Shown piece after piece: positions 37,965 through 56,798 of a stretch of DNA of 64,000 nt. The notes beneath the pieces are model-generated. The model was not told the DNA's origin and did not search any database. It saw only the letters and a list, made by a program, of their open reading frames with translations. This stretch comes from Candidatus Binatia bacterium. GTDB lineage: Bacteria > Desulfobacterota > Binatia > Bin18. Position 1 is the first letter of the stretch, and every line of letters begins with the position of its first letter. Position numbers and translations under genes: made by a program. Location: positions 32,001-96,000 of the forward strand of contig CAXXHG010000039.1 in the NCBI GenBank assembly GCA_963666315.2, given 5' to 3'.

Positions 37965-37997
37965 AGCAGGCTAAAAGTATTAAGGGATTGAAGCAGG

Positions 37998-38813
37998 ATG
38001 GAACAACTTACAGACAAAGTCGCCGTCATCACCGGCGGAGCAAGTGGAATCGGACTGGCTACGGCGCGTGTACTTGCCAGCCGAGGCGTACGGCTGGTGT
38101 TGGCAGATGTAGAAGCCTCGGCCTTGGACCAGGCGGTTGCTGAGCTGTCTGCAAATGGGACGACGGTCCAAGGTGTGGTGTGTGATGTCGGCGACTTGAA
38201 GGCGGTGCAACGACTGGCTGATACGGCCTTCGACTCAATGGGCGCCGTGCACCTTGTGTTTCATAATGCCGGGGTGGCGGTTGGCGGTCCGATTGTTGAC
38301 ATGAAACACAGTGACTGGGAATGGACCCTGCGGGTGAACCTGTGGGGCCCCATACACGGCGTTGAAGTGTTTGTGACACGCATGATCGCGCAGGGCACAG
38401 GCGGCCACATGGTGTTTACCGCGTCGTTTGCCGGTCTGGTCCCAAACGAAGGACTTGGGCCGTATTGTGTGTCCAAATATGGTGTTGTGGCCTTAGCTGA
38501 GGTATTGCGCCGAGAACTGCGAGCCCATGATATTGGGGTGTCGGTCCTATGTCCGATGCGTGTCGCAACGAATATCGGCCACTCCGAGCGTAACCGTCCC
38601 GCTGCGTTGGGAGGCGCAGGAGCTTCCCCTCAGGTGCAAGACCAAGGTGAAGACAATAGCAATCTTGCCGGACGAGTGCTGAACGTGGACGATGTAGCGT
38701 CTCAAGTCGTTGATGCTATTTTCGCCAATCGGCTGTATATTCTGCCGCACGAAGAAAGCCGGCAGTCCGTCCGGCGTCGCTTCGAGCGTATCGATCGGAC
38801 GTATGATGAGTAG
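37998..38813 (+). CDS. short-chain dehydrogenase/reductase
   Basis: TGGASGIG, HNAG, TAS, YCVSK motifs. Confidence 0.93.
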   Translation: MEQLTDKVAVITGGASGIGLATARVLASRGVRLVLADVEASALDQAVAELSANGTTVQGVVCDVGDLKAVQRLADTAFDSMGAVHLVFHNAGVAVGGPIVDMKHSDWEWTLRVNLWGPIHGVEVFVTRMIAQGTGGHMVFTASFAGLVPNEGLGPYCVSKYGVVALAEVLRRELRAHDIGVSVLCPMRVATNIGHSERNRPAALGGAGASPQVQDQGEDNSNLAGRVLNVDDVASQVVDAIFANRLYILPHEESRQSVRRRFERIDRTYDE

Positions 38814-38821
38814 CGGGCGAA

Positions 38822-38872
38822 ATGATGAAAGGGCTGGCAACGATTACGCCCCACCCGATTGTCCAGATGTAA
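38822..38872 (+). pseudogene. 5' end of the VOC/glyoxalase-family gene interrupted by the element
   Basis: MMKGLATITPHPIVQM, then a TAA created at the junction. Continues in frame as CWVVDDMEASAQQW after the right repeat. Confidence 0.75.
38852..38870 (+). repeat. attL core, CACCCGATTGTCCAGATGT
   Basis: Identical 19-mer at 52179-52197. Confidence 0.92.
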
Positions 38873-38885
38873 ACAAGCTGTGAGA

Positions 38886-38958
38886 TTTCAATAACTTAGC
38901 GGGTTGTGCTGCGCAGAATCGCGCAACCCCACGCACAATCCGCAACCTATCCGCAACC
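38886..38958 (+). promoter_or_regulatory. IHF-like site and integrase arm-type repeats
   Basis: TTTCAATAACTTA (near WATCAAN4TTR). ATCCGCAACC x2 at 38938 and 38949, also present at 52105-52114. Confidence 0.6.
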
Positions 38959-39116
38959 AACATCCTGCAATGAGGAGGTCTGGAATCCCGACCTTCCTCA
39001 AGCTACCATAACCCCAACCGGGAGGGCCTAGCCTTGGCCAGCGAAAAGGTGGTGTCTCTCCTGCCCGCCCTGGCCCTCCTGTCTCACAGCAGGAGCGTGC
39101 CTGACAGGAGACAGGT

Positions 39117-39930
39117 GTGGGACATTCCAAATCTAAGCAGGCGGCCGAGGTATCCGAGGCCCAACGCGCGTCGGACCATCTAATCAATGTCGTCACCAAA
39201 AGAGGAAAGCTGCTGAGCATGGCAGCGGCTTACGTTGTTGCAACGATGACGTATCCACAGGATGAGGATGGGAGGCGGCGCTGCATCCTCATCCTACTGA
39301 CCGGAGTAAGTGGACGCGCACAAAAGAGGGTGCCGCGCAGTACCGACAAGATCAGCCGAACGTTAGGAGACCAGATCAGTCACTATGGAGGCTATGCCGC
39401 CCTCAGTGACGTGCCCGCACACGCGGAAATGATGCAAGCCTATAGGGACAGGAGCAGGCATGGCCTCCTCGCGGGTGATGTCCTGTTGAACGTGTATCGC
39501 ATAGACAATACGGGCATGCCAGCCAGCGTAAACAAAGCGGTATTCCTTCGCGCATCACAAGACAACGACGCGCCGGTCAGCGAGAGAAAGGTCCGCCATG
39601 CATGGAGCGACTACAGGTCCGTCGCTCCGTTCTGGGCTGCGTTACGGCTGCGGCAACAAGCCAACAGTCCCGGAGGAAAAATCCCTCAAGCTTCTCCTAC
39701 AGAGATCCTCCCAAAAAGAATTGCCCGCGTTCCTAGCGGAGTGTGAAGCTTTCCGTTTATTTGCCATCACCTTCCACGCCCGTGGTATGTCTAATCCCCT
39801 CCTCGATGCCGCCAAAGTCTGGTGCATACCTGCGAACGTACACTTGCCCGATGGCCCGCTGTGGCATGCGCAGCTTTCCCCGCCGGAACTGCTGATTCTC
39901 GCAGGCTACCACGCACGACAGCGGTCCTAA
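39117..39930 (+). pseudogene. element-borne hypothetical protein, frameshifted
   Basis: ORFs 39117-39746 and 39598-39930 join at the A-run near 39713-39717 (EILPK/ELPAFLAECEAFR). Confidence 0.55.
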
Positions 39931-40052
39931 CGCAAGCAGCCGAGCGTCTCTGCGCTGCCTGTCTGAAGACGCACCGGCCCCTTATCTACAGTACTGCAGG
40001 CCCACTCTGCATGAATTACAGCTGTTTTCTCCATTGATATCATCCTCTCGCT

Positions 40053-40322
40053 ATGACACGAATCGAAACGAGCCTACAAGCCGACGGGTTTCTCAGCAAG
40101 CGAGAAGCCGCAGAATATCTTTCTCTTTCCGCCCGCTCAATAGATAATCTCCTGGCCAAAGGCGAGCTACCGGCCTTTAGACCTCCCATCGGGACGGAAC
40201 ACGGGCGCAAACTGCTTTTCCGGCGATGCGACTTGGACGCATGGGTCGAGCGCTATCCGGCGAACCAGGATCTCGATCAGATCGTGGAAGAGGCCCTTGT
40301 CGGAATGGGTCGAGAGAAATAG
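40053..40322 (+). CDS. excisionase-like HTH (HTH_17) DNA-binding protein
   Basis: FLSKREAAEYLSLSARSIDNLLAKGELPAFR..GRKLLFRR.DLDAW pattern. Confidence 0.85.
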   Translation: MTRIETSLQADGFLSKREAAEYLSLSARSIDNLLAKGELPAFRPPIGTEHGRKLLFRRCDLDAWVERYPANQDLDQIVEEALVGMGREK

Positions 40323-40493
40323 ACCTCGTGTCTTACTGCTGGCGGGGAGGTGTACTTACATTCTTTGCCAATCAACCACCGGTTTGTGTGAGAACACCTC
40401 CCACGTGGAACTCATAGGCCTCGTGAGAAGGTCAGAACGACGCACCATAGGACGTTCATTTGGGAGACCATAACCGCCCAAGGAGGGAGAGAG

Positions 40494-40793
40494 ATGCCGC
40501 GCAGAATGAAGAAGTTTGAACTCGGATCATTATATCTCAAAGCCCAAAATTGCCGCTTCGATATAGAGGCAGTGAGAACGATCCTAAATCAGGAACTAAA
40601 GCCGTTGATCATTGGCGATGAGGCGGCAATGGATGCATGGCGCGACGCATTTATATTCACCTTACGGCTCTGTGGCTATCTACGAGAAACCACCGAAGCG
40701 CTCCGTTACGCTTACAACGACGCCCAAGGCCACCCTCATCCTGAATTTGGGAGGAAGATCGAATGCCAGCCTGCTCCAAAGCTAGGTGACTAG
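40494..40793 (+). CDS. hypothetical protein
   Basis: AGGAGG RBS, 99 aa, co-oriented within the element. Confidence 0.6.
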   Translation: MPRRMKKFELGSLYLKAQNCRFDIEAVRTILNQELKPLIIGDEAAMDAWRDAFIFTLRLCGYLRETTEALRYAYNDAQGHPHPEFGRKIECQPAPKLGD

Positions 40794-40934
40794 ACACCAG
40801 CTACAGAGGCGTGTGGTCCCTCAGCGCAAAAAAGCCCGACCCGGTGGGAGCCAGGCAGGGCAAAAATAAATTACGACTGTGGCTTGGGACGCCTTCCACA
40901 AAAGCCCCAGGCCACCGGTCAAAAGGAAATAATT

Positions 40935-41050
40935 ATGAGAGACGATAACATAAATGCCGGTACAACCCAAGACGGCCTACCGCTCCAATGGGCGCCCTAC
41001 TACGCGAGCCTAAGGTACCCTGTCTTGCCCGTTCACACGCCCACGACCAG
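40935..41050 (+). pseudogene. Prim-Pol (bifunctional primase/polymerase) N-terminal remnant
   Basis: LQWAPYYASLRYPVLPVH resembles the Prim-Pol start motif A..YA..G.PV.P. No continuation. Confidence 0.5.
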
Positions 41051-41084
41051 CACTGTAGCCAGACGAACCATACGGGAGGGAAAA

Positions 41085-41279
41085 ATGGACGATGGCAGGC
41101 TAAGCTGCGATCAGTGTCCGTACACGATCGCGGTTTCTCTGGAAGACATCGACGCGGACATTCACCAGGCCGGAGACGTGCGCTCGTGCGGAGACAATGC
41201 TGGTTTTCTCTGCGCCTCCTGCCACAGCGAACTGGTGTTTGAGGATCCACAGCCTTTCCCGGAGGAGCCAAGTGTCTAG
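41085..41279 (+). CDS. small CxxC..CxxC protein
   Basis: Own GGAGG RBS. CDQC...CASC. Confidence 0.5.
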   Translation: MDDGRLSCDQCPYTIAVSLEDIDADIHQAGDVRSCGDNAGFLCASCHSELVFEDPQPFPEEPSV

Positions 41280-42351
41280 CTCGCCACCTCGCCGCCGTAT
41301 TGTTCCAGTGCATCTGATCCCCAGTACAGTTGAAGAGATCGACCCGGTCTCAGACTGGCACGAGGAGGAGTCAGAGGAACCGTTAAGTAGCCGAGAACCT
41401 GTGATCTTATCTGATGAACGCCGGGACTTGGGGCTTGTCACTGCCGGAGAGTTATTAGCCCAGCCGGATAGAGACACTCAGTGGCTAGTCGATGGTCTCC
41501 TGCCTGTCGGCGGTACCTCCGTTATGGTAGCCAAACCGAAAGTGGGCAAAACCGTCACCGTACGAAATCTCGCCAAGGCAGTCTCCCGTGGCAGTCCTTT
41601 TCTCAATCGCGGCACCCTACAAGGCACGGTCATCTACCTGGCGATGGAAGAGATCGAAGAAATGGTGAAGCAGTCTTTCAGAAAGATGGGTGTTACTGAC
41701 TCGGATCCCATCATGATCCGATGCAGCATGATGGATGAAACATCGGCCAGGCGACTACACGCCAGTATACGAAACGATCCCCCAGCGCTGTTGATCGTGG
41801 ATACGTTGTTTCGATTCGCAAGAATAAGAGACGAGAACAAGTACGCGGAGGTCACCAGGGCGCTGAATCCTCTGATCAATCTGGCCCGCGAGACCGGTAC
41901 GCACATATTGGCCACACACCACGCGAAGAAGGAGATCGCAATTGGGGACCCTATGGACGCGGTGCTCGGATCAACGGCGATATTTGGCTCGGTTGATACC
42001 GCCATTATGCTCCAAAAAAACTCGCAGGGCATTCGGACGATCTGGTCCGGTCAACGTTATGGCACTGCAATACCGAAAACAATTTTGCGTTTAAACACGG
42101 AAAGGGAACGTACCTGGATAGTCTCCGAGACAGTCCATGTGGAACCCGCAGGGGAGATGCGCCAGGAGCGAAAGGAACTGCTCAATATCGTCATCAATTC
42201 CAAGGATCCGCTATCAGCCAAACAAGTCGCACAACGTGCCAATAAAAACGAAAGTACGACGCGGAACATGCTAGAGAAGCTCATTTTGGCAGGAGATATT
42301 GAAAAGTGCAAAGAAGAAGGCCACGTAACATATGCCCCAAGAACTTCGTAA
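41272..42351 (+). CDS. RepA/AAA_25-type (SF4) replicative helicase with C-terminal winged HTH
   Basis: QWLVDGLLP.GG, AKPKVGKT, YLAMEE, LLIVDT, HHAKK, GSTAIFG motifs. GTG start after GGAGG. Confidence 0.85.
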   Translation: MSSSPPRRRIVPVHLIPSTVEEIDPVSDWHEEESEEPLSSREPVILSDERRDLGLVTAGELLAQPDRDTQWLVDGLLPVGGTSVMVAKPKVGKTVTVRNLAKAVSRGSPFLNRGTLQGTVIYLAMEEIEEMVKQSFRKMGVTDSDPIMIRCSMMDETSARRLHASIRNDPPALLIVDTLFRFARIRDENKYAEVTRALNPLINLARETGTHILATHHAKKEIAIGDPMDAVLGSTAIFGSVDTAIMLQKNSQGIRTIWSGQRYGTAIPKTILRLNTERERTWIVSETVHVEPAGEMRQERKELLNIVINSKDPLSAKQVAQRANKNESTTRNMLEKLILAGDIEKCKEEGHVTYAPRTS

Positions 42352-42525
42352 AGAAGTGTAGCAGGTATAGTAAAGAAGTGTCGTATAGGAACCGTAGTAG
42401 CCGTAGTAAGCCATGGTAGATTGAAACTGACGACGACAGCGTAGTAGGTAGCGTAGTAAACCAAAATCAAATGAATTCCATGTGTTAGAGGAGGATTACT
42501 ACGTTACTACACCTACCATGGCTTA
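42348..42525. repeat. putative replication origin with inverted iterons
   Basis: CGTAGTA x4, an AT-rich spacer, then TTACTAC x2. Perfect 13-bp inverted repeat at 42407-42419/42513-42525. GTAAAGAAGTGT x2. Confidence 0.7.
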
Positions 42526-42710
42526 TGCATGTTGACTGGAATGGCGGTCCACGTCGCCGGTTATCAGCATACGCTGGCCTCGGCGACGCTATGCTTCTTG
42601 CCGTCCTATCTGATTTGGCAGGTTGGCAAGTATCCCGTCGAAAATGGAAGATGTGACCTTGATGACTAACTTAACCCATATTACATGACAGGAAATCGGA
42701 GGACCCTCAT

Positions 42711-43181
42711 ATGCAGAGATTAAGCCTTGAGGCTGACGAAGAGGAACGAGTCCGTATGGAACGAGCCTGCCACAATGTGGACGATTGGCTCAGATCACAC
42801 CCTCGTGTTCCCGCTACGAAAACAGAGTTGCAGCATATCATGAACATCCACAGTGCCCTCGTCAGCGGATTCCAGCATGTGTCTCGACACGAACGGGAAC
42901 GCCTTGAACGAGGCATCGTTGATCACCTCTGGTATTATATCTCCCATCCGCCGAAACAAGCCGAGCCGCCCAGAAAATTAGGCCATGCGGCACCTATCCA
43001 GAAGGCCGTATTGCGCTTCCTGCACATGAATGAATATCCGATGGGCGCTGGCGAGATCGCTGTCGCGCTAGATAAGACACCGAACAACATGGCGCAGAGA
43101 CTCCTGTCATTGCACAAAGCCGGGAAAATAATCCGTGTGAGCCCTGGGCGTTATATTCCAGCTGGGCCTCCAGAGGCATAG
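42711..43181 (+). CDS. hypothetical protein with C-terminal winged HTH
   Basis: GGAGG RBS. PMGAGEIAVALDK.PNNMAQRL.SL.KAGKIIRVSPGRY. Confidence 0.7.
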   Translation: MQRLSLEADEEERVRMERACHNVDDWLRSHPRVPATKTELQHIMNIHSALVSGFQHVSRHERERLERGIVDHLWYYISHPPKQAEPPRKLGHAAPIQKAVLRFLHMNEYPMGAGEIAVALDKTPNNMAQRLLSLHKAGKIIRVSPGRYIPAGPPEA

Positions 43182-43351
43182 CTGGTCGCACTAGGCACAC
43201 GACTTATCCGCCAGAGCATAGACCGAGTAGTCGAGAAGCGCGATTTGATACATATTTCGCGACTACCCAGCCACTCGTTGCTCTTGCAGGTCACAAACCG
43301 CATGGATACTGATGGACAGGCGAGGTGGGGTCGTAAAAGGAGGGCCATTGA

Positions 43352-43918
43352 ATGCACGCTCTTTTCCACTTCAGTATTGCTGTCCTTTTGCTGTCTTCGG
43401 CAAGTTGCGAAGTCGTCTCGGACCTAGCGAAAGATGCTCGGTACAGGGGAACAAACGTGGGCTACCAACGATGTATTGACCGAAACGAAGATGTCGCTCT
43501 CAGCGCTGAGTCAGTCAAATCGCAGTGTAGCGCTGAGCATAGCCGGGTGATTAGGATCCTCCACGAGGCCAGCGCTTCCTATCAAAAACCACGATACAAG
43601 AGCGGCTCCTTGAGTGCGATCTTGCAGAGAAGCATTTATTTTGCTGGATTTGTTACAAACCTGTCCCGGGATCAGATAGTCACCGCTGTGGAGATCACCC
43701 TCACGCATCAGGATAATATCGATGAAGCAGGGCAACCGATCGGCGAAGTCGTTCGATCGGAGAACCTCTGGATTGAACCTGGAGCGATTGGGGGGTTTAG
43801 GATCGAAGGCTACGATCTGGATTTTAAACCAGCAGATGGGAGACTGAAGGACGGCGAGAAGTTTCTCTATTCATGGTCAATCAACAAAATCCGAGGGCTA
43901 CGGATAAAACTCCGTTAG
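43352..43918 (+). CDS. putative lipoprotein
   Basis: AGGAGG RBS. Hydrophobic signal ending in SASC. Confidence 0.6.
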   Translation: MHALFHFSIAVLLLSSASCEVVSDLAKDARYRGTNVGYQRCIDRNEDVALSAESVKSQCSAEHSRVIRILHEASASYQKPRYKSGSLSAILQRSIYFAGFVTNLSRDQIVTAVEITLTHQDNIDEAGQPIGEVVRSENLWIEPGAIGGFRIEGYDLDFKPADGRLKDGEKFLYSWSINKIRGLRIKLR

Positions 43919-44009
43919 CCTGAGTAGTACAAGATTGTGATGGCGGGCAACCGCGTATGACGTGCTGGCCGCCCACAACCCAATGACGGTGCGGCATGCT
44001 GCTGAGAGA

Positions 44010-44200
44010 TACCGGGCGCGACAGGCACAGCTGTACTGTATTTTCAGATTTCGATCCCAGCGGGGAGCCGTGCGCTGCGGATATTACGCAGTACAATTTA
44101 CCCCCGGACTTGGCGAAACCAACCGACTCGCGGCGCAAGGCGTTTGTGCATAAATATGGCGATGTGTCAGTCGAGTTGGACGCGATACCCGTGGATAGTG
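44010..44200 (+). pseudogene. Toprim-like phage protein fragment
   Basis: SDFDPSG ... QYNLPP..AKPTDSR..AFVHKYGDVSVELDAIP, internally shortened. Confidence 0.55.
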
Positions 44201-44589
44201 GATACTGGAACAATGAGTGCGAGCGTGAGGCCCCAAGGGAAAATTTCTTGGCCTGGTTTGATCGCCCGCAGGCTTTCAATGCGAGCCGTCTTCCAACGGG
44301 TTGAGATAATCAACTCCGCGTTCGGTTTTTCACCGTGATTAATATAACGGGTATAATTGGACTTCGGCCCGACCGCGTTGATCCAACGGTTCTTGCAGGC
44401 CCACATCAAGTAGAGTGATGATACATAGGGTTCTCGGTTCGCATGCCAATCACGAATAATCTCGCCAACATAATAGCCTATGGTTTCACCCTTCTTGATC
44501 ATAGTTTTGGCAAACACGCCTTTTCCGCGTCCGGGAGAATTTTTGATGATGAAGCTATCAAAAGTATGCACTACCTTCTTCCTTGGCAT
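44167..44589 (-). pseudogene. SET-domain protein-lysine methyltransferase, C-terminally truncated
   Basis: SPGRGKGVFAK, GYYVGE, TRYINH, RAIKPGQEIF motifs. The expected DY motif is absent. Confidence 0.8.
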
Positions 44590-44621
44590 TAGTCCTCCCC
44601 GCCTCAACCCTCATACGTCTT

Positions 44622-45509
44622 TTATGAATAGATCAGCGTCCCATGCGCTCCGGATTCACGCAACCGCCAATATAAGGCATCAAGCTTTTGTGTAATCGGA
44701 CCAGGGGTCGCTCCTTGGAGCGGGCGCCCTGAGACTTCCCGTACGGCTAACGCCCCGCCGGCCGTGCTGCAAGTAAAGACTTCGTCCGCCGAGTATAGAT
44801 CAAAGGCCGTTAAATCTCGCTCAACGGCAAGAATGCCAGCTTCTTCGGCAAGGTCAAGAAAAGTCTGGCGGGTAATGCCATGCAGCACCTCCCGTCCGGG
44901 TGTATACAGCGTCCCTTTACTGACCATAAAAATATTTGATGCCGGCCCCTCGCTCACATACCCGCCAGTTGAAAGCCAAATAACATCATCATATCCCGCC
45001 TCCAGCGCCTCAATCTTAGCCAGTTGAAAATGGAGACGATCCAGGCATTTATAACGCGGGTCAAGTGTGTCAGGCGTAAAGCTGCGTAAATGGCTAATGA
45101 AAAGGCGAATACCCGTATTCCGTTTTTCCTCGTCCGCGAGGAAAACATACGGTGCAGCCCAGATGATAACGGTTGGATCGTAATCACGCGGGTCAGCGAC
45201 CACCTGCTTCGCAACTCCACGTGTCACAATAAAGCGGATGCTCGCATCCTGCATCTCGTTGCAGCGTACGGTTTCAATGATCGCTTTACGCCACTGTTCC
45301 CTCGTCATAGACGTGGTCAGCCGTGCTGCCTGCAGCGACTGAAAAAATCGATCAAGGTGTTCGTCCAGCTTAAAGATGCTTCCCTTCCAGGCTGAGACCA
45401 CATCAAACACCCCATCGCCTAAGAGAAAACCTTGATCGAGTACAGAGATGTTTGCCTGACTCAGGGGCTTGAAGTCTCCGTTTATGTAAAGGAGGGGTTC
45501 GTTCGGCAT
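44622..45509 (-). CDS. class IV PLP aminotransferase (IlvE/Dat-like)
   Basis: ISVLDQGFLLGDGVF, HLDRF, PRYK (PLP Lys), SEGPASNIF, LHGITR, ADEVFTCST motifs. Confidence 0.92.
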   Translation of the reverse strand: MPNEPLLYINGDFKPLSQANISVLDQGFLLGDGVFDVVSAWKGSIFKLDEHLDRFFQSLQAARLTTSMTREQWRKAIIETVRCNEMQDASIRFIVTRGVAKQVVADPRDYDPTVIIWAAPYVFLADEEKRNTGIRLFISHLRSFTPDTLDPRYKCLDRLHFQLAKIEALEAGYDDVIWLSTGGYVSEGPASNIFMVSKGTLYTPGREVLHGITRQTFLDLAEEAGILAVERDLTAFDLYSADEVFTCSTAGGALAVREVSGRPLQGATPGPITQKLDALYWRLRESGAHGTLIYS

Positions 45510-45738
45510 GGTTTGGTTTACCTCTTCGACCTTAGTGCAAGTAGCGCGCCCTTCGCATCTGGAGTCATCTATACTACGCGTCTTAACAAGGGAACTAGGG
45601 GAAGGACAATGAGATATCCTTATCGAATCTAAATCAGGTAGGCGGTCGAGATAAAAATGGGAACAGCAATCGAACAGGAATGGCCAGCCTCCGGCTTAGG
45701 AGAAAGTGCTGGAGGGGGATAAAGAAAGAAGCGCTCGC

Positions 45739-46419
45739 TTACTTACGAGCCTTCGCTGGCAGGGCAAAGTTAAGGACTTCACCAGCCGCCCACATACCAA
45801 CGGCAATTGCAGCTCCGACAGGACCACCAGTCAGGGCCCCAATCCCGGCAGACGTACCAGCACCCACAGCCTGGCCGGTGCGTTTCGCGTCATTCTTATC
45901 TCGGCCCAAAGCGGAGGCGGTGGATTCGGCAATAAGCTGTGCGGCATCTGCAGCAATCAGCCAGGGTGTTGTTGCCGCTCGACTGGCAGCTTTACTCGAA
46001 AGCTTTGCGGACGCTTTTACTGCAAGTTTGGCAGCACCGGTGGTAACCATGCTCACCACAACTTTTGATACAGCGTCAGATGCGCTTTCTATAAACCGAT
46101 CAACCTGCTGACTTTCGCGTTTGCCAGTGCGACACCAATTGACAAAATGCTCACAGTTATTCCACAGAATGTGATATTCCTGTTCACCGATACAATTCAA
46201 CGCTCGGAGGGCGATCTCATCGGCATCAAAAGAAGTGGGAGTAGAGTGAACCTCAATCGAGTGGCCTTTGGAGAATTTTTCGCCAGACGTGACGTGAACG
46301 GACGCCGTCACCCCATCCGATAGGCCTCGCCCATATTGGACGACATAGCCATCGCCAAGATCGATGGCGTGGTGCGTATACCAGCCACGTCGGGCGATGA
46401 GATGGTCGCCTTTTGCCAT
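45739..46419 (-). CDS. LRAT/NC-domain (permuted NlpC/P60) protein with Gly/Ala-rich tail
   Basis: GDHL....YTHHAIDLGDG, YHILWNNCEHFVNWCRTG motifs. Confidence 0.88.
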   Translation of the reverse strand: MAKGDHLIARRGWYTHHAIDLGDGYVVQYGRGLSDGVTASVHVTSGEKFSKGHSIEVHSTPTSFDADEIALRALNCIGEQEYHILWNNCEHFVNWCRTGKRESQQVDRFIESASDAVSKVVVSMVTTGAAKLAVKASAKLSSKAASRAATTPWLIAADAAQLIAESTASALGRDKNDAKRTGQAVGAGTSAGIGALTGGPVGAAIAVGMWAAGEVLNFALPAKARK

Positions 46420-46479
46420 AGTGCTTACCAAATCCTCTTTACCAGAATGCCACGACTAAAGCCCTCAACAAAGACCTTA

Positions 46480-47156
46480 TTAGGTAACAGTTTCGGCTGA
46501 CGAATCATGAGGGGCATCGGCGCTCTGCGATCTTTTATAAATCGTCACGGCACACGGACGCCCCACCACTTCGCCCTTCTCGTTGAACTCGCCATACTCT
46601 GATTGAAACAGATCCATGCCCCATTCGCGAGGCTGGGTATCAAACCACAGCTTGGTATGCGCAGTAATACAGGACGTCTTTTTGATTGAAACTCCATTTT
46701 GCGGCTTCTTGGTCACACCGAGCTGACTCGGATGGCGCGTTGATGTTTCGGCCTTGCCCTCTTGAAGCATGCGGCCTCCACTGGGGCAGTAGTGCAGCAA
46801 GAACTGGAACTTCTCATCGTCTTCTTCGCATGTGAAGTCATAGCCGTGAGAGCGCAGGAACATGGCATATGTTTCAGCCAGCAGGGCGGGGTCTTTATCT
46901 CGATGGGCTTCCAGGACGTGCGCCACAGTTTTTCGCCTACATAACGCCAGGCTTCCTCAACCGCATCTTCGCCGAGTTTTTCTTTGACGTAGTCAAGAAA
47001 TACGGCAGACATGTCGCCGTACAGATCGTGGATCGGACGGCCCTCTTCCCAAATTTCGTCGACCGCCTTCAGCGCCTGTTCCGTTTGTCCTGCTTCGATG
47101 GCCGCCTTGGCCCGGTCACGAGCCGTTTTCATGAAGTCGTGACGGATGCGTTTCAT
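46480..47156 (-). pseudogene. conserved hypothetical protein (CPSGGR / YYC.H motifs), multiply frameshifted
   Basis: Two overlapping ORFs join near 46925. A further out-of-frame block WSFNQKDVLYYC lies near 46660-46700. Confidence 0.65.
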
Positions 47157-47161
47157 AATGC

Positions 47162-47602
47162 TTACACAAAAATATCGAGCGGCAAAAATGCAGAGACAAG
47201 GAAGTTGGGGACATCCACGAGTTCACTGACCTTGAGATCCACGGCTACGCTGCAGATGGCGTAGGCCTGTTGGCGGGTATAGCCACGCTCATCAACCAGA
47301 TGATCGATCATATTCAGCAGCGCGTTCCGGGCCGCGAGCGTAGCGTCTTCTGAATGCGCAACGCCTTCACGTGTATAGGGCTGCCCCGTTGTTGCAAAAA
47401 AGCGCTTGGGAACGGCCATCCCTGGTGTAGTAAAATAATCTTCGCGATAGAACTGAATATCCCGAATATTGTGTTTTGCCGCCATTCCTTTGAGAACCAT
47501 AAACGAACAGTAACACGTGGCCGCCATCTCAACCGCGGTACCGCAGCTCTCGCCATCTCCTTGAGCAAAGTGTGCATCACCGACGGAGAACAACGCACCC
47601 GG
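47162..47602 (-). pseudogene. acetamidase/formamidase, 3' remnant
   Basis: GALFSVGDAHFAQGDGE..GTAVE, QAYAICSVAVDLKVSELVDVPN motifs. 5' part missing. Confidence 0.85.
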
Positions 47603-49949
47603 CTACACTCTTGGTGAACGTCTCCGGCAGCGGCGTCTACAGAAGCACGGATGGAGCGACGAGTTGGGCTCCCGTCAACCTGGACGTTGGTGATCTCGGA
47701 ATCACGTCGTTCCTCTTCGACCGTGTCTACCCGCAGACGGTCTATGCGCGCACGGCCAGCGGCGTACTCAAAAGTGTTGACGCCGGCGTTTCATGGATAC
47801 CGACAAACAGCGGACTGACGAACGCCTCAGTACGTTCTGTAACGGTTGACCCGCTCTCTCCTACTACTCTGTATGTCATCACCAGTGGTGACGTATTCAA
47901 AAGTACAAACGCCGGTGAATCCTGGACTAACCTGGACACTGGCATCCCCACCCTCACCGTTCTCGCGATCGACCCGGTTGATCCGACCATACTGTATGCT
48001 GGCATAGCAAAACTGTACGGCACCGAGGGGGGCGTATTTAAGAGTATCGATGCAGGAGAAACGTGGACGGCGGCGAATGTCGGCATCAGAAACCATTCAG
48101 TCAGGGGACTCGTGATCGACCCTGATAGGCCAACAACGCTATATGCTGGGGCCACACCGGACTTCTCCGCGGAAGTGACAGACGTGTTTAAGAGTATCAA
48201 CGGTGGAGCAAGCTGGGGACAGGTCAACGACATCGATTATGTTTCCTCTTTGGCCATAGACCCCAATTCTCCGACGACTGTGTATGCCGGCGGACTTGAT
48301 CGGGTCTACAAATCGGTAGACGGCGGCGAGACGTGGACTTCGACAGTTATTGGAGCAGTCTTTGGTGAACTCTATGTTGGCGCCTTAGCAATTCCACCCT
48401 CAACCACCACGATAGTGTACGCCGGTACGTCCAGAGGCGTCTTCAAGAGCACGAATGGCGGAGACAGCTGGGTAGAGGTGAACAGAGGGCTCCCATCATT
48501 CCAGCGACACCCATTGGGCTCTGGATATAGCAACGTCGCGACGTTGGATGCGCTAACAGTTGATCCCACCACCCCAATGACTCTGTATGCAGGAACCGAC
48601 AGAGGGGTATTCCGGAGTACCGACGGCGCCAGTAGCTGGAATGCAATAAACATGGGGCTCCCAAATGCTTATGTAAGTGGACTCGCGATTGTTCCATCGG
48701 GCACCATACTGTATACGGCTACCGGTGCTGGTGTTGGCAGTTTCGAGTTTTCCGGAGAAGAGCTGCCGAGGATCATTGCCCATTTGGAGACCCCGGAAAA
48801 AGAACGAGACCATTTTTTTCTATCTATTTTACCTTGGTTTCTGGCATTGGCATAATTCAGGGGTGGGCCTTTCCCACCCAGGCAGGCAGTCAGATCAGCG
48901 GTGTGTACATAGATGCCAGCAGCCGTAGAATCCGCGTCCCCTGTTGCTCAGAGCGGGCGCACGTGAGCGCAGTATATCCGGAATTCTCTCCTCACAACAC
49001 ACGCAATAGCGGTTGGAGTACAACCCTTAATTGGAACATAAACTTTGTTCTATCGTATCCGGATTTGGTAAACGTCGAAATACGGGGTACGCGAGGGGAG
49101 TTCTTCTTCGCCGAGACACGTACCACTATGGCTATCAGTGCAGGCCAGTTCGAATTTGTCGATCAATTTCTCTTGTCGGAGGCAAATGTTGCAATCCGGG
49201 ATGGGCAACTCGCGGTGGCGGGAGTGATCGTTCGAGATAAGGTCACGCAGAAGCGGGTGAAGATCAATACGCGGTTTCGCTGGTCCGAGAGTGCGCAAGG
49301 CTTCCAAATGGTCGCAGCCGTGACCACGGGCAGTCTTGCCTCTCAACGATCCCCCGTGTTTGATTTCTTCGCTTCCCTCTCTTCCTGGTTCCCGGGTGCA
49401 AGGGCATTGGTCTCTTCTGCGTTCGCTGCCACTGGCATACGCGCTGTAGTCGAGAGTCCTCAATCGGGAGAAACCGTCTCTGGTGTTACGGTCATGCACG
49501 GGTGGGCGTTTTCAGAAGACAGCACGATAGCGCAGGTTCGCCAACTGATCGATGGGAAGCCTATTAGCAACGTACCGTGCTGTTCAGAGCGACGTGATGT
49601 CGCAGAGGCGTTCCCTGACAGCCCCAACGCGCTCCTAAGCGGGTGGGGGGTTTTATTTAACTACGGACTGCTCGGTTCCGGCGCCCACACCGTGACGATT
49701 GAAATCGAGGATACGGAGGGTAGCGTAACGACAAAGCATCATTCAATCGAAGTGGTCCGACTCGGTGGATTTGAGTTTGTCGATCAGTTTGATCTCTCGA
49801 TAGCGACGGCGCGTCTTGATGGAGAGCTGATCATCATAGAGGGGGTGAAGATTCGGGATAAAATCAGTCAGCAGACCAAAGTGATTGACGTTCACCTCCG
49901 GTGGTTTGAGAACTCCCAAAGTCTAGGCGTGGTGGCTACAAGCGAGTAG
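47597..49949 (+). pseudogene. BNR/Asp-box beta-propeller exported protein with duplicated C-terminal Ig-like module; 5'-truncated and frameshifted
   Basis: About seven KSxDGGxxW repeats with DPxxPxTLYAG. Frameshift near the T-run at 48813-48840. Two copies of VSG..GWAF..PCCSER..SGW..FEFVDQF. Confidence 0.78.
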
Positions 49950-50196
49950 AGCATCCAAGGTCTGTGATGCGTTGCAAGCGGTGTTCATCTTGCTCAGACG
50001 TTGACACTGTTTAAGACAACAATATTTTTGCAAATTTTTTTCGTATATGAAGAGACGCTTCAGGGCCATGGACAGAGTCTGGAGGGGGGGCCTACCCCTC
50101 TGATTACGGAAGCACCTCATCGGGAGACGAGCTGAAATACTGTAGTTTCTACGAGGCAGAAATCCCACCCCTGCACCGATCGCTCGCTAAACGGCC

Positions 50197-50225
50197 TTGA
50201 CAAATATCACTGTATGTTCTATAAC
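50197..50225 (+). promoter_or_regulatory. near-consensus sigma70 promoter upstream of radC-int
   Basis: TTGACA-17 nt-TATAAC. A CTATAAC..GTTATAG dyad overlaps the -10/+1 region. Confidence 0.7.
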
Positions 50226-50327
50226 TATGTGTTCCTATTTCGTTATAGCAATCGCCGTTGTGGAGTCTCTTTCCACGGCACGACGAATCACAGAAAGGAG
50301 GGCAACAATATAACGCGGCGTGAAGTC

Positions 50328-50432
50328 GGCCACCCGAGGTGTATCGAGCACCCCGAGTAGCCTAGCAGCCCTCAGCACAGCGGGTACTGACAGCTGTTCC
50401 TTCGATTCCTAACCCGCCGGAGGAGTTCCGGC
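50328..50432 (-). ncRNA. candidate cis-antisense RNA / structured leader of radC
   Basis: Two hairpins whose four C-A mismatches become G-U pairs on the minus strand. A third hairpin occludes the RBS. Confidence 0.45.
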
Positions 50433-50433
50433 A

Positions 50434-50910
50434 ATGACACAGACTATCCACGAGTCACCACACTACGACATCCCCGTCTATAAAGTCACTCTCGTTAGGG
50501 AGAACAACTTGACCCAGCAACAACGCCCCATCGTTCGCGATGCCCAGAGCGCGGCCACCATCCTCGCAGCCTATCTGGCAGGGGAAGATAGAGAGCATTT
50601 CGTGGTCATGATGTTAAACGCCAAGAATCGCATCATCGGGATTAATACAGTCTCAGTAGGGAATTTAACGGCGTCTCTGGCTCATCCCCGGGATGTCTTC
50701 AAGCCGGCGATTCTCGCCAATGCGGCCGCTATCCTCCTGGCCCATAACCACCCGAGCGGAGACACTTCACCCTCCCGGGAAGATATTGCGTTGACTCGTA
50801 AGCTCTACGAGGGGGGCCAACTCCCGGGCATCACCTTACTCGATCACATTATCGTTGGGGATCATGACCACTGGTACTCGTTCCAAGATGACGGCATAGG
50901 CCTGGCGTAA
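50434..50910 (+). CDS. radC: RadC/JAB-domain protein (short mobile-element type)
   Basis: DREHF, HPRDVFK, HNHPSGD.SPSREDI, LLDHIIVG motifs. Confidence 0.92.
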   Translation: MTQTIHESPHYDIPVYKVTLVRENNLTQQQRPIVRDAQSAATILAAYLAGEDREHFVVMMLNAKNRIIGINTVSVGNLTASLAHPRDVFKPAILANAAAILLAHNHPSGDTSPSREDIALTRKLYEGGQLPGITLLDHIIVGDHDHWYSFQDDGIGLA

Positions 50911-50986
50911 GCGTCAACCTTTGATCTGGACGTACGGCTTCCCTTTGTGGGCCTGTACGTCCACACAGTTACCGAGAGGAGTCTAT

Positions 50987-52125
50987 ATGGCAGTCAAGGT
51001 CAGAAAGCGCAGAGACAAATGGTGGGTGTACATTGACCACAACAACAAACGGAAGGCCAAGTGTATCGGCCCGAGTAAACGCGCGGCGGATCAGGTAGCC
51101 GAGAAGATCCGGGCGAAGCTGGCACTGGGGGAAATGGGCATCCTCGACACAGAGAAAGAAGCTCCGTCCATCACCTTTGCAGAGTACCATCGGCATTGGT
51201 TCCAGCAGTACGTGGTGACAACGAAGAAGATACGGACGCAAGAGCAATACGAGATGATCGGCCGACTCCACCTGCTCCCAGTCTTTGGCGACGCCCGCTA
51301 CGTGACATCAAGGCAAAAGAGATCCGTCAGTTGGCCTTCCGCCTCCTCGCCGAGGGTCGAGCGCCCAATACTGTACGCAGGGTCCTGGTGGCGCTGAGTA
51401 GCCTCTTTCAGTTTGCGTGTAAGGACGAGGAAGTAGACCACAACCCTGTACGGGGTATTGCCGGCGAGATTCGGTCCAGCAATACCGAGGAGCGGAGTCC
51501 GGCAGATTTCTTGACACGCGAGGAACTTGGTCACGTGCTCCGGACTTGCCAAGAACAGATGTCCCGTCACTACCCTTTGGTCTCGCTCCTTGCGCGGACA
51601 GGGGTACGCATCGGGGAAGCGCTCGCCTTACGCTGGGACTGCGTGGACTTCCACGGCCGGTGCCTCATTATCAAGCATTCGGCTGATCGCGGCAGGATTG
51701 GGACACCGAAGTCGGGAAAAACGAGACGAGTGGATATGAGTCGAGGGCTGACCGAGACCCTCCAGGCGTATCATCTTCAGCAGCGGAAACGGGCGCTGCA
51801 GCAGGGCACGACGCAACCGTCGTTTCTGTTTACGACGCGTACCGGCGCCATGATGGACCGCGCTACCGTCCATCGGACCGTCTGGCAGCCACTCTTGCGG
51901 AAAGCGGAGATGCGGCATATCCGGGTCCATGACCTGCGGCATACGTTTGCGTCCTTGCTGATCCAGAACGGCGAGTCCTTGGCCTACGTAAAAGAGCAGA
52001 TGGGGCACAGTACGATTAAGATGACGGTGGACACCTACGGACACCTCGTACCCGGCGGGAATAGACAGGCAGTAGACCGGCTGGATGGGCTCGAAAAGGC
52101 AACCATCCGCAACCATACACTCTGA
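50987..52125 (+). pseudogene. int: tyrosine integrase split by a single frameshift
   Basis: N-terminal arm-binding part up to LLPVFG, frameshift near 51290, then RPLRDI... with intact catalytic R (TGVRIGE), K, HDLRH, MGH and Y. Confidence 0.9.
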
Positions 52126-52178
52126 GGGAGGGAAAAAGCGTGCTAAGTCCTGAGAAAGTCTCACTGTGTAGCGAACAA

Positions 52179-52197
52179 CACCCGATTGTCCAGATGT
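52179..52197 (+). repeat. attR core, CACCCGATTGTCCAGATGT
   Basis: Identical to 38852-38870, 54 bp after the integrase stop. Confidence 0.92.
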
Positions 52198-52435
52198 GTT
52201 GGGTTGTCGATGATATGGAAGCATCGGCCCAGCAGTGGGCCGCGACAATGGGGGCGGGACCGTTTTCCTGATCCCACATATTCAACTCGACGCGCTGACC
52301 TATCGGGGTAAACCTGCCACGCTGGATCAGTCGTCCGCCGTCGGCCAATGGGGCACGCTCCAAGTCGAGCGGTTTCAACAGCATTGCACCAACCCGTCCG
52401 GCGCGCGGGAAATGTACGCACCGGGAGAGACGGGG
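52179..52435 (+). pseudogene. VOC/glyoxalase-family gene, 3' portion; frameshifted and truncated
   Basis: HPIVQMCWVVDDMEASAQQWAATMGAGPF, frameshift at T4 52263, then FLIPHI..YRGKP..GQWGTLQVE..MYAPGETG. Confidence 0.75.
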
Positions 52436-53348
52436 TCGGCGGCTCATACGTCCACTGTCACATCAGTAGCGTTGGCGATAACGAGGCAAAAGACGACGAG
52501 GATTGCCTACGCATTATCCGGCGCTATCTGAGCTATTTCCCGACCAATGTATATACATCGCCGCCGCACGTTGAGCCGAGTGATGATCCAGAGCGCCGTG
52601 ATGAAGAGCTGCTTGCTATTGTGCCGCGTAACCGCAAGTGGCCGTATAATATGCTCTACGTGATGCGGCATCTGGTCGACCACGGCACGCTGTTCGAGCT
52701 CAAACCTCACTTCGGAAACTCGGTGGTGACCTGTTTGGCCCGTATGGACGGTGCAGTCGTTGGGCTAGTGGGCAATCAACCGCTGAATAGGTCTGGCATT
52801 ATTGATGGGGCGGCTGCCGATAAGGTGACCCACTTTATCCAGCTGTGTGACGCCTTCCACATCCCGCTCATCTTTCTGTCCGATGGGCCAGGCTTTATGA
52901 CCGGTTCTGTATCAGAACGCGAGGCGACCCTCCGTCGCGGGCTGCGTATTGCCTATGTCATGGCATATATCACTGTTCCTACAATCTCGGTTGTCTTACG
53001 CAAGGCCTATGGCATGGGCGCGGTTGCCATGTGTGGGCACAACAGCGGACAGATCCTGACCTTGGTCTGGCCATCCGGAGAGTTTGGCGCACTGCCGGTC
53101 GAAGGCGGTGTAGATGCGGGCCATAGACGTGCGTTGGCTGAGACCGAAGAGGGCGGGTGGACGCGCGAGGAACTGGAAGCGTACTACACGCAATTTGGGG
53201 TCCTCTCTCAACGGCGGAGACATCTAATTTCGACGATATTATTGACCCGCGTGAGACACGCCCGCGTATTATTCGAGCGCTGCGTGCTGCCCGTGCGCGT
53301 AACGCTGCGCCCCTCGGTCCGAAAATGCGACATGGGATTATGCCATAG
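52436..53348 (+). pseudogene. acyl-CoA carboxylase carboxyltransferase, C-terminal half
   Basis: GGSYVH, RRYLSYFP, LARMDG..VG.VGNQP, CDAFHIPLIFL.DGPGF, RKAYG motifs. Frameshift near 53197, then DDIIDPRETR..HGIMP. Confidence 0.85.
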
Positions 53349-53404
53349 TAGAGGCATCCCTTGTACCCGTGTGTCCGGGCGGGAAGTGGGCCGGAGGCGG
53401 GAGC

Positions 53405-54094
53405 CTATGCCTCCTCAGTCCTGTTCTGCCGCAATGCAGAAAGTGCACTTTCTACTCGGTCTAGGCGCTGAAGAATTTCCTGTTGCGGATCGGCGCGCAG
53501 ATAGCCCTGCTCAACAAGTTGGATGAAATTGCGAGCGACTTCATCCGCCGACAACGGTCCGTCGGGCTGGTACCACTGGTACAGCCAATTGCACATACCG
53601 AGAATGGCAAAAGAGACCAGCTTAGCAGGCAGTGGAGCCAGCCGCCCGGCTTGTATGCCTTCGGTAATCACCCCTTCAATCAGGCCGTCATACACGCGGC
53701 GTTCGGTTCGCGCCCGTTGGGCTATCTCTTCGGGCAGGTTGCTCTCTTCACTGAAAAAGACCCTCAGAAAATTCCCTTGGTCGGCCATCAACCGGACTTG
53801 ATGCCGGATAATTTGGCGCAACTTTTCTTCAGGCACTATGGCCTGGGAACAAATCTGACGCAAATCCCGCTGAAAGATCGCAATCGTACGCTCAAACACA
53901 CGAATAAGGAGCTCTTCTTTACTGGGACAATAACGGTAGAGGGTGACGCGCGAGATGCCCAGCCGCTCGGCGATGGTTTCGAGCGTAGTTGCCCGATAAC
54001 CCTGCTCCCCAAAGCAGTCCGCCGCCGCCTGCAAGATGGCTTCTTCACGCACAGCCTGCTTGCTGCCCCGTTCCCGTCCGTTCTTCGTAGCCAT
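53405..54094 (-). CDS. TetR family regulator (KstR2-like C-terminus)
   Basis: ILQAAADCFGEQGYRATTLETIAERLGIS..TLYRY..SKEEL, GMCNWLYQWYQPDG motifs. Confidence 0.92.
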   Translation of the reverse strand: MATKNGRERGSKQAVREEAILQAAADCFGEQGYRATTLETIAERLGISRVTLYRYCPSKEELLIRVFERTIAIFQRDLRQICSQAIVPEEKLRQIIRHQVRLMADQGNFLRVFFSEESNLPEEIAQRARTERRVYDGLIEGVITEGIQAGRLAPLPAKLVSFAILGMCNWLYQWYQPDGPLSADEVARNFIQLVEQGYLRADPQQEILQRLDRVESALSALRQNRTEEA

Positions 54095-56450: not shown

Positions 56451-56798
56451 AACTTCGTTCCTGTGCGGCTGACTGCGTTGGCGATCATCGCTGCAGCCTG
56501 GCTGCTGCGCTGGGTCGGGCGGGGCTATGACGGCGCCGCAGCCTGGCGCATAACCCGGCGTGACGGTCACAAACACGCCAGCCCGAATGCCGGCTATCCT
56601 GAGGCGGCCTTGGCCGGCGCCTTAGGCGTCCAGTTCGGCGGTCCGAGCGGGTACTTTGGGACGGTCGTTGATAAACCGACATTGGGAGAGCCGAGTCCGT
56701 CACTGCCTCCTGCTCTTATATCGCAAAGTCTGACCTTAATCGATGCACCCAGTGTTGTGTCGGTGAGTCTCTGTACTGCTTTACTTCTCTTTTTTTAA
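56451..56798 (+). pseudogene. cbiB: adenosylcobinamide-phosphate synthase, 3' remnant
   Basis: NFVPVRLTA, RDGHKHASPNAGYPEAALAGALGVQFGG..YFG..VDKPTLG motifs. Confidence 0.88.

Follow-up and report, generated by a model that had tools for sequence, protein, structure and literature searches.

Is the 13.3-kb interval that separates the first codons of a VOC/glyoxalase gene from the rest of that gene in a Candidatus Binatia genome an integrated mobile element, and what has it done to the gene in which it lies? The window (the whole 64-kb stretch analysed, positions 32,001 to 96,000 of contig CAXXHG010000039.1) had been described in an initial annotation as carrying a satellite-like element inside a VOC coding sequence. 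The mobile element in the coding sequence and the exact att-type repeats on its flanks were both borne out, by the repeat itself, by the integrase and by the reading frame across the joint. We regard it as well supported, with a probability of about 0.8, that the insert is a 13.3-kb site-specific integrative element, consisting of positions 38871-52178 plus one 19-bp core, in the VOC gene that follows an SDR gene. The features that define the site are the following.

38822-38872, plus strand: native 5' end of the VOC gene, 16 codons MMKGLATITPHPIVQM followed by TAA, aligning to residues 1-16 of intact homologues (alignment A1)
38852-38870, no strand: attL core, a 19-bp direct repeat (exact repeat search)
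50987-52125, plus strand: tyrosine integrase, split by a frameshift into the open reading frames (ORFs) 50921-51397 and 51196-52125 (PF14659, PF00589)
52124-52142, plus strand: element-borne ribosome-binding site GAGGGAGGG and a GTG start at 52140 in the VOC frame; GAGGGAGGG overlaps the integrase stop codon (52123-52125)
52140-52437, plus strand: remnant of a chimeric VOC gene, 13 element codons followed by VOC codons 11 to ~105, with the last ~75 codons missing
52179-52197, no strand: attR core (exact repeat search)

The 19-mer CACCCGATTGTCCAGATGT is exact at 38852-38870 and 52179-52197, as had been noted initially, and the identity between the two places stops sharply at both of its edges. 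When both strands of the window were searched with up to 3 mismatches allowed, these were the only two matches, and the lack of a third speaks against a common genomic repeat; in dinucleotide-preserving shuffles the mean was 0.04 matches, with two or more in 0/100. The SDR gene upstream is located at 37998-38813 (PF00106, E = 3.9e-46) and the ATG of the VOC gene (38822) follows 9 nt past its stop codon. The left VOC stub is closed by a TAA (38870-38872) made up of the final base of the core and the first two bases of the element. On the right side the same frame reads HPIVQMCWVVDDMEASAQQWAATMGAGPFS from 52179 and then meets a stop, and the joined reading agrees across the joint with intact VOC homologues of 179-183 amino acids (e.g. 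MIKELATITPHPIVQMCWVVDDMEASAQHW in P0054 and MKGLDAITPHPIVQMCWMVDD in P0003). In alignment A1 the left stub corresponds to residues 1-16 of intact proteins of 179-180 amino acids and the right piece to residue 11 onward, with an overlap of HPIVQM. The 19-mer is present twice here and HPIVQM(C) once in the uninterrupted homologues, as seen at the protein level. The claim that removal of one repeat copy and the interval restores a continuous frame is correct at the joint, which matches the intact homologues, but a frameshift at ~52262-52268 and a 3' truncation at ~52437 follow.

Homologues of the VOC gene were searched for with its 58-residue downstream piece (52265-52438, the frame continuing FLIPHIQLDALTYRGKPATLDQ), and 50 proteins were obtained at E <=0.001 among 52 candidates, 46 of the 50 with PF13669. 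The addition of 15 listed proteins from a single 90% cluster gave a set of 65 VOC proteins, of which 45 had an uninterrupted native N-terminus (M..(4-20 residues)..PIVQMCWVVDD), 4 had another N-terminus and 16 were truncated, divergent or chimeric. The target gene belongs to the VOC/glyoxalase-fold superfamily by PF13669-type homology, the fragments in the window itself being too short for Pfam, and a match of P0054 to PDB entry 3gm5 ('lactoylglutathione lyase and related lyases', E = 1e-6) backs the VOC fold. Because of alignment A1 across the joint and the match of P0054 to 3gm5, the insert is placed within a genuine VOC-fold gene, where it lies in codons 11-17, in the most conserved N-terminal segment (...HPIVQMC...). 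No tRNA or tmRNA gene was found in the 64-kb window. A metabolic VOC gene had been called an unusual target, and the 5' end of a protein-coding gene is indeed uncommon, yet there is a precedent in the SXT/R391 elements in prfC (passages of PMC4344509 and PMC2791158). The integrase gene (phrog_1, E = 8e-60) ends 54 nt before attR and thus stands beside an att core; 3100 relatives were found at E <=1e-20 among 7559 candidates, the closest being 61% identical.

The feature of this locus that we consider noteworthy is an apparent replacement of the 5' end of the target gene, backed by natural chimeric proteins. It had been overlooked earlier, as had the broken state of the integrase gene, the VOC gene and several cargo genes. 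The GTG at 52140 lies 7 bases past GAGGGAGGG and 39 nt before the core, is in frame with both the core and the VOC gene and reads (M)LSPEKVSLCSEQ-HPIVQMCWVVDD, so that 13 element codons (MLSPEKVSLCSEQ) are found where the native gene has 10. In L001, a locus of another species and the closest relative, an ATG occupies the position of this GTG and the peptide is the same but for one change. Four full-length metagenomic VOC proteins of 183 amino acids (P0002, P0052, P0059 and P0062) start with MLSPEKV[SA]LCSEQHPIVQMC, and this N-terminus is the translation of the window from 52140 onward and of L001 from 3652 onward. Because these full-length proteins begin with an element-encoded peptide, the integrated element would appear to swap the VOC 5' end and to supply translation signals instead of simply inactivating the gene. 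The chimeric VOC gene would probably be co-transcribed with int by read-through. For annotators this means that the leader of VOC proteins with an MLSPEKV... start comes from a mobile element.

Proteins of the element type and of the native type were compared in a pairwise table of 10 proteins, which is a small sample. The body of the element-type protein P0059 shared 161-162 of 169 residues with the native-type proteins P0054, P0060 and P0064, as compared with 154-156 of 169 with other element-type proteins. This suggests that occupied and empty alleles coexist in one VOC sub-lineage. Such coexistence requires that integration recurred or that excision was precise, and it therefore speaks for genuine site-specific mobility.

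The ends of the element carry further candidate signals.

38880-38900, no strand: left half of an imperfect inverted repeat flanking the core, including ACTTAGC at 38894-38900 (weak)
38938-38958, plus strand: two tandem exact copies of ATCCGCAACC with 11-nt spacing, candidate arm-type integrase sites (exact repeat search)
39021-39093, plus strand: int-alpA RNA (Rfam RF02996, 36.3 bits, gathering score 35.8); a hairpin and the GTG of the first ORF come next
52105-52114, plus strand: third exact copy of ATCCGCAACC, within the integrase codons for a conserved C-terminal ATIRN, 65 nt before attR

Exact copies of ATCCGCAACC are present in the window at 38938, 38949 and 52105 only, each within 90 nt of a core (mean 0.10 in shuffles, with three or more copies in 0/100), in agreement with the repeats reported near both ends. 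In a circular form they would flank the core on both sides, like arm-type sites. LDGLE.ATIRN (window 52099-52116) is conserved in integrase homologues that are 55-61% identical (P0066, P0067 and P0071), and DNA-site and protein constraints may overlap at the copy at 52105. An inverted GCTAAGT beside both cores had also been noted; the pair is there (38894-38900 on the minus strand and 52142-52148 on the plus strand), but this 7-mer is expected 5.02 times in the window and was rejected as a meaningful motif in its own right, and the score of the longer imperfect inverted repeat around it was reached by 11/500 shuffles, which is modestly above chance.

The int-alpA match is full-length (1-71 of 71), with E = 8.1e-4 over the whole window and a score narrowly above the gathering score. 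In a circular form int would be on one side of this RNA and the alpA-like gene on the other, in agreement with the family name, from which the usual context of int-alpA RNAs is assumed here. The motif is not mentioned in the main text of PMC5737381, and no match to it was found in L001 or in L002-L008. An 8-bp inverted repeat (CCTGTCTC ... GAGACAGG) right after the match (39094-39131) forms a hairpin that reaches the GTG of a 209-residue ORF and would cover its likely ribosome-binding site. Two other RNA matches were rejected as chance, one to the MEG3_2 long non-coding RNA (39009-39112, 21.1 bits against a gathering score of 60) and one to sR3 RNA in L001, and promoter and terminator scans gave counts close to the shuffled expectation.

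The copy in the window is probably an immobile relic, and the damage extends into the flank outside the element.

52431-53300, plus strand: carboxyltransferase remnant fused to the VOC remnant, with ~185 N-terminal profile positions missing

The integrase gene carries a single frameshift, near 51290-51300; in comparison with the intact 393-residue P0071 its N part corresponds to residues 1-97 and its C part to residues 94-373, with 55% identity. The VOC frameshift (~52262-52268) leaves the window one base short of L001, and the gene ends at about codon 105 (~52437), where it is fused to the carboxyltransferase. The carboxyltransferase remnant (methylmalonyl-CoA decarboxylase alpha-like, in the stretch 52431-53526) is itself frameshifted near 53190-53215, with its C-terminal motif FDDIIDPRETRP in the other frame near 53200. 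In the cargo, the 3' fragment of a formamidase gene lies head-to-head with a BNR-repeat gene that has no N-terminus (junction near 47580), and further scars are a topoisomerase-like fragment and an ORF split in two (46480-47156). The same VOC frameshift and the same VOC::carboxyltransferase joint are found for P0050 on another contig, which has additional indels relative to the window.

L001 aligns to the window at 36589-38844 and 52110-52305 only, with 90-91% identity. It keeps the first 9 VOC codons, then has 1.36 kb of other sequence, and then the last 69 nt of the element (88% identical) and attR; its attR core has 1 mismatch and its VOC gene an in-frame TAA. Because just these 69 nt and attR are kept, the insertion would probably predate the split of the window species and L001. 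A single old insertion inherited by both species and decaying differently is the simplest reading of the two loci, and independent insertions followed by deletion could also have produced them. In place of the island, L001 has at 2258-3621 an AbrB/SpoVT-like ORF (2462-2737) and a PIN-like ORF (2734-3177), which are of toxin-antitoxin type (names from reading of the ORFs). In another genome, P0048 (on a 1771-nt ENA contig) is a chimeric ORF with SDR residues 1-41 joined to VOC from ...EASAQQW, which implies that a deletion at a shared microhomology coding for EAS took out the VOC 5' end, the island and the rest of the SDR gene. A dated series of decay states is formed by the copy in the window, the remnant in L001 and the deletion chimera P0048.

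Empty sites and other copies were looked for in 28 loci obtained by a contig scan via the SDR gene, whose identity is 90% to its counterpart in L001 and 72-84% to the counterparts in other Binatia metagenome-assembled genomes. The upstream DUF6178-SDR synteny was present in 7/28 loci (L001-L005, L007 and L013); it ends at the SDR stop codon, and a VOC gene lies downstream in L001 only. The expectation that relatives would have an intact VOC gene after the SDR gene did not hold, as none of the 27 other loci has one and the VOC gene of L001 carries a stop. When 38871-52178 was compared with the 28 loci by blastn and tblastx, just the 69-nt right end in L001 was found. The empty site is known at the protein level alone, from the native-type and element-type VOC proteins among close alleles. 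The upstream gene order (CoA-transferase, cupin, PEP-mutase-like, DUF6178 and SDR) is conserved in several Binatia metagenome-assembled genomes. Directly past the SDR gene (about 10814 onward) the DNA of L002-L027 differs at almost every locus, making this a variable spot; L004 and L005 share a small ORF there (..RWVR.PERWQ..GGG.YKRGLFVL.G..), which in L005 is followed by an HNH-like ORF.

Several points weigh against the reading of a site-specific element that replaced the VOC 5' end and then decayed. No empty site was found at the DNA level (a VOC gene lies downstream in 0/27 other SDR loci), nor an intact copy of the element or a close relative of its integrase (best 61% identical); because the latter two are lacking, the case for activity of the family comes entirely from the protein-level occupancy pattern, which in turn is drawn from few proteins and not from a tree. 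The expression of the chimeric VOC gene, the promoter used and the role of the arm-type sites are all things that we infer. The copy of ATCCGCAACC at 52105 may exist merely as coding for the conserved ATIRN, and the int-alpA RNA is just 0.5 bit over the threshold, with an unexceptional fold (z = -1.63). Finally, the single-base frameshifts could be assembly errors, and there are broken genes outside the island as well (gcvP at 5.1-7.8 kb and cobalamin genes at 56.4-58.5 kb), because of which assembly indels are possible for the single-base lesions.

If the frameshifts in the integrase and VOC genes were indeed assembly indels, the element could still be functional, and such a state would be compatible with the integration mechanism proposed below. 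Both cores are identical, the integrase gene has a single lesion with its aligned catalytic region reading through, and the excisionase, helicase and RadC genes are whole; the split genes elsewhere in the window and the further indels of the P0050 contig relative to it point in the same direction. We nevertheless consider a functional element unlikely. The VOC gene has lost its 3' end and is joined to a carboxyltransferase that is truncated too; these changes, like the fragments of formamidase and of a topoisomerase-like gene, are deletions, and large deletions at the locus cannot be indel noise. In addition, P0050 repeats both the VOC frameshift and the deletion junction, and in L001 most of the element is gone through independent loss and the VOC gene is interrupted by a stop. 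The lesions cluster in three places, and ~27 Pfam-matching ORFs between 7.8 and 38.8 kb appear whole.

What kind of element the relic represents was approached through its gene content, for which 28 ORFs of the window were scanned for element families with Pfam and PHROGs; Pfam at E up to 10, NCBIfam and PADLOC were used as well. The features between the ends are the following.

39117-39746, plus strand: 209-residue ORFan, possibly not a real gene (no family match)
40053-40322, plus strand: HTH_17/excisionase-family protein, an Xis/AlpA-like directionality factor or regulator (PF12728, E = 2.3e-11; phrog_66)
40884-41279, plus strand: 131-residue Cys-rich ORF, earlier named 'primase' (only match a DUF1451 zinc ribbon, E = 0.049)
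41197-42351, plus strand: AAA_25 RepA/DnaB-like replicative helicase with a C-terminal winged helix (PF13481, E = 3.1e-28)
42348-42530, no strand: iteron-like cluster, candidate origin or operator (GTAAAGAAGTGT twice; CGTAGTA five times, 4 direct and 1 inverted)
42711-43181, plus strand: 156-residue protein with a weak C-terminal winged-helix signal (phrog_1123, E = 2.5e-4; HTH_12, E = 0.17; no PDB match)
43352-50168, no strand: cargo and scar region (family scans), which includes a 188-residue ORF
43996-44304: topoisomerase-like fragment
44167-44607, minus strand: SET
44622-45509, minus strand: class IV aminotransferase
45739-46431, minus strand: LRAT-like
46480-47156, minus strand: ORF split in two
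47162-47593, minus strand: formamidase 3' fragment
47572-48855: BNR/sortilin-repeat protein without N-terminus
48834-49949: 371-residue cargo ORF (no family match)
50434-50910, plus strand: RadC-like JAB domain protein (PF04002, E = 5.7e-42; TIGR00608, 139 bits against a cut-off of 133.85)

A hypothetical gene, a xis-like gene, helicase, ori-like repeats, cargo, radC and int do follow one another in the order given by the initial annotation, but the primase that it had placed among them is not supported. The HTH_17 protein passes the cut-off of TIGR01764 (39.2 bits against 28.8) and, judging from its family, would serve as an excisionase or directionality factor; small ORFs without an assigned family lie between its gene and the helicase gene. 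The homologue search with the 209-residue ORF returned only the ORF itself among 429 candidates, and its Atlas leads (scores <=0.89, the first a plant-virus coat protein) were taken as chance. PDB sequence searches with unassigned ORFs were empty or gave E = 0.71.

The 'helicase' label stands and the 'primase' label does not. For the ORF at 40884-41279, Pfam (E up to 10), PHROGs and NCBIfam gave no sign of a primase, and there was no pairwise similarity to P0188, the nearest non-self relative of the helicase; an Atlas score of 0.76 to a cluster that is 11% Prim-Pol is a lead only. The N-terminus of the helicase ORF showed no primase domain in Pfam at E up to 10, and P0188 (56% identical, 448 amino acids, AAA_25 plus winged helix) has no primase domain either. 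An exhaustive helicase search gave 25,472 relatives at E <=0.001. The distant relatives comprised 240 phage and 10 plasmid records, with <32% identity among the matches listed, and in 16 relatives sampled from the best 150 an N-terminal primase-type domain was present in 9 and absent from 7. Matches to PHROG primase-helicases were confined to the ATPase part, and the hexameric RepA of plasmid RSF1010 (1g8y) was matched with E = 5.1e-5. The true start of the helicase is probably downstream of 41197.

The iteron-like stretch is non-coding and lies downstream of the helicase gene. CGTAGTA occurs 9 times in the window, 5 of them in this cluster, against an expectation of 2.37, and 9 copies were reached by 0/100 shuffles; the cluster also contains the arms of a 13-nt perfect inverted repeat (42407-42419 and 42513-42525). 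GTAGTAARCC, which was tried as the iteron unit, was not enriched, in contrast to the shorter CGTAGTA.

Nothing in Pfam, PHROGs, NCBIfam or PADLOC indicated packaging, capsid redirection, helper sensing, conjugation or defence, and the layout could be that of an integrating plasmid, a mobilizable element or a satellite; no single class was assigned. The insert might be what is left of an integrated plasmid or of an integrative element of the mobilizable or conjugative kind, whose transfer genes were lost in the cargo deletions. A RepA(RSF1010)-like helicase beside iteron-like repeats makes up a module of the plasmid type, conjugative elements commonly carry RadC-like genes, deletion scars are present in the cargo (two 5'-truncated genes head-to-head near 47580 and other fragments) and the SXT/R391 conjugative elements follow the same 5'-end target logic. 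This origin is nonetheless improbable in our view, given that no relaxase, coupling-protein, FtsK-like or type IV secretion system family, as expected of such integrative elements, was matched in Pfam, PHROGs or NCBIfam (oriT was not searched for) and that 13.3 kb is small for a conjugative element.

Membership in a new family of phage satellites specific to Binatia, with helper-induced excision, replication by the RepA-like helicase and use of helper capsids in the manner of PICMIs and VEIMEs, is doubtful and is not supported by our results. A size of 13.3 kb and the combination of int, an AlpA/Xis-type HTH protein and a helicase do fit minimal satellite layouts in the passages concerned of PMC10803314 and PMC9618062, and PF12728 is among the AlpA profiles of the PICMI model (same passages of PMC10803314). 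The relatives of the helicase are, moreover, mostly from phages (240 against 10 plasmid records) and the name of the int-alpA RNA family ties the element to int/alpA loci. However, Pfam, PHROGs, NCBIfam and PADLOC gave no match to a hijacking family, be it terminase, capsid, portal, head-tail, Sid/Psu/Delta, Ppi or another. A primase was likewise not found, with neither of the PICMI families DUF3987 and DUF5906 present, the window contains no helper prophage and this copy is broken. In the relevant part of PMC10085698, moreover, int, AlpA and a replicase alone were too little for the authors of SatelliteFinder.

The individual satellite classes gave the same picture. Of the P4-like genes only int and the HTH_17 regulator were found (PHROG/Pfam, 28 ORFs), with no psu, delta, sid, epsilon or alpha; for PICIs and cfPICIs no terS, ppi/cpm, capsid or head-tail adaptor family was matched; and for PICMIs int and PF12728 are present, the primase families are absent and the site is VOC and not fis-adjacent. 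Elements with int, AlpA and primase/replicase alone are termed 'Type C PICI' in part of PMC10085698 and set aside there as possibly defective or other elements, and a P4-like core would appear to the PICI model as just int, AlpA and replicase (same source). The earlier statement that capsid and terminase genes are lacking is correct for the scanned window ORFs, but a satellite layout without them is not 'undescribed', as VEIMEs and PICMIs, from what is presented in extracts of PMC9618062 and PMC10803314, are already of this kind. For the earlier reading as a whole, integration into the VOC gene is well supported, and the primase, the satellite label and the 'undescribed' layout are not supported.

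That the 19-bp repeat is a chance or generic genomic repeat in ordinary chromosome, for which the missing SDR-VOC adjacency in 27/28 related loci (a refuting result named beforehand) could be cited, is already refuted by the repeat being unique to these two places with 2 matches in 0/100 shuffles, by the joint reproducing a conserved protein, by the integrase, excisionase-type gene and arm-type repeats exactly at the ends and by the synteny of L001 breaking at the same two points.

Returning to the site-specific integrative element, its history may be pictured as follows. The tyrosine integrase would have recombined attP, composed of the core, flanking ATCCGCAACC arm-type repeats and the imperfect inverted repeat, with the attB in the VOC gene, the HTH_17 excisionase-type protein serving as directionality factor or regulator and the int-alpA RNA lying in the leader of the left-end operon. 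After integration the native VOC start would be left with a 16-codon stub ending at the junction-made TAA, and the VOC gene would be re-expressed with the 13 element residues MLSPEKVSLCSEQ, which are plain in the sequence, for 10 native ones. In the circular form the RepA(RSF1010)-like AAA_25 helicase and the adjacent iteron-like cluster may provide plasmid-like replication, and transfer between cells may have relied on a helper phage, on a helper conjugative element or on other means.

A bolder and rather improbable extension would make the insert the remains of a hitcher element from a family confined to Binatia, whose members might be satellites without capsids. In such a family the HPIVQMC-coding VOC segment would be attB and a portable ribosome-binding site, start codon and 13-codon leader would re-arm the target at its 5' side; the int-alpA RNA would lie well outside the groups in which that motif has been described. 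The arm-type site would be written into the ATIRN codons of the integrase, tying the protein to the attP architecture, and the mix of occupied and native VOC genes at 95% identity would point to recent mobility and to intact copies in uncultured Binatia.

SXT/R391 elements recombine their attP with an attB at the 5' end of prfC, for which they use a tyrosine integrase and an Xis partner (passages of PMC4344509, PMC2791158 and PMC3715440). What they share with the element is a tyrosine integrase and Xis acting at the 5' end of a conserved protein-coding gene. SXT reportedly (work of Hochhut and Waldor from 1999) supplies a new promoter and N-terminal codons, by which prfC stays functional. In contrast, SXT is ~100 kb, conjugative and gammaproteobacterial with an integrase unrelated in target, whereas the element is 13.3 kb with a RepA-like helicase and no transfer genes found, and its chimeric VOC is known from sequence alone. 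The locus would be a second natural case, after the one reported for SXT in prfC, of 5'-side target repair via translation signals and a new N-terminus, and here the repair is supported by full-length chimeric proteins in metagenomes. A general rule given in PMC3715440, in the passage concerned, is that site-specific elements carry a copy of the displaced gene end so that function is kept. In tRNA and icd insertions 3' ends are replaced by near-identical sequence, whereas at this locus unrelated codons take the place of a 5' end and translation signals have to be brought along too. The icd gene is the target of phage 21 and e14, with duplication of the gene end.

PICMIs and VEIMEs resemble the element in being small, in their short direct repeats (17 bp in PICMI115, from an extract of PMC10803314) and in combining int, AlpA/HTH_17 and a replication protein with no capsid or terminase (extracts of PMC10803314 and PMC9618062). 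They differ in that the PICMI model, in the part of PMC10803314 that describes it, needs a DUF3987/DUF5906 primase and a fis-adjacent site, neither of which is found in the element, and in that VEIMEs are defined by concatemers in virions (PMC9618062, in part). The element is also larger, has metabolic-looking cargo with fragments and is broken. P4-like satellites likewise have int, an AlpA-type regulator and a replication protein; in the element, unlike in P4, no psu, delta, sid or epsilon was matched, the helicase is of the RecA-fold AAA_25/RepA type and not of the P4 alpha type, and the target is not a tRNA gene. In P4 alpha/ori the C-terminal DNA-binding domain of the replication protein recognises nearby iterons. 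The ATPase/helicase domains of RSF1010 RepA and of the AAA_25 part of phage primase-helicases are homologous to that of the element, which differs in having no primase domain and an added C-terminal winged helix.

A full-text literature search pairing Binatia with integrase gave no paper, and the mobile elements of Binatia (Binatota) appear undescribed. The locus offers an attB that is clean and can be checked, at the conserved 5' end of a protein-coding gene.

Some minor observations concern the cargo and the surroundings. No PADLOC defence system was found among the window proteins, and three sub-threshold-looking PADLOC matches, all on the helicase, were rejected as defence cargo. The 371-residue cargo ORF is internally duplicated, with two similar halves that each contain ..VPCCSER..V... 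plus ..GGFEFVDQF.. or ..GQFEFVDQF... Further upstream in the window (5100-7800), after an intact gcvT, matches to GDC-P are split over the overlapping ORFs 5487-6065 and 5950-6780, and there is no ORF of >290 amino acids where two subunits of ~450 amino acids are expected. At 56463-58516 a cobalamin salvage cluster is damaged: it contains a 111-residue C-terminal CbiB-like fragment (name from reading of the sequence) and a CobD-like class I/II aminotransferase in two pieces (57623-58042 and 58049-58513), the second piece corresponding to profile positions 149-302 of 361.

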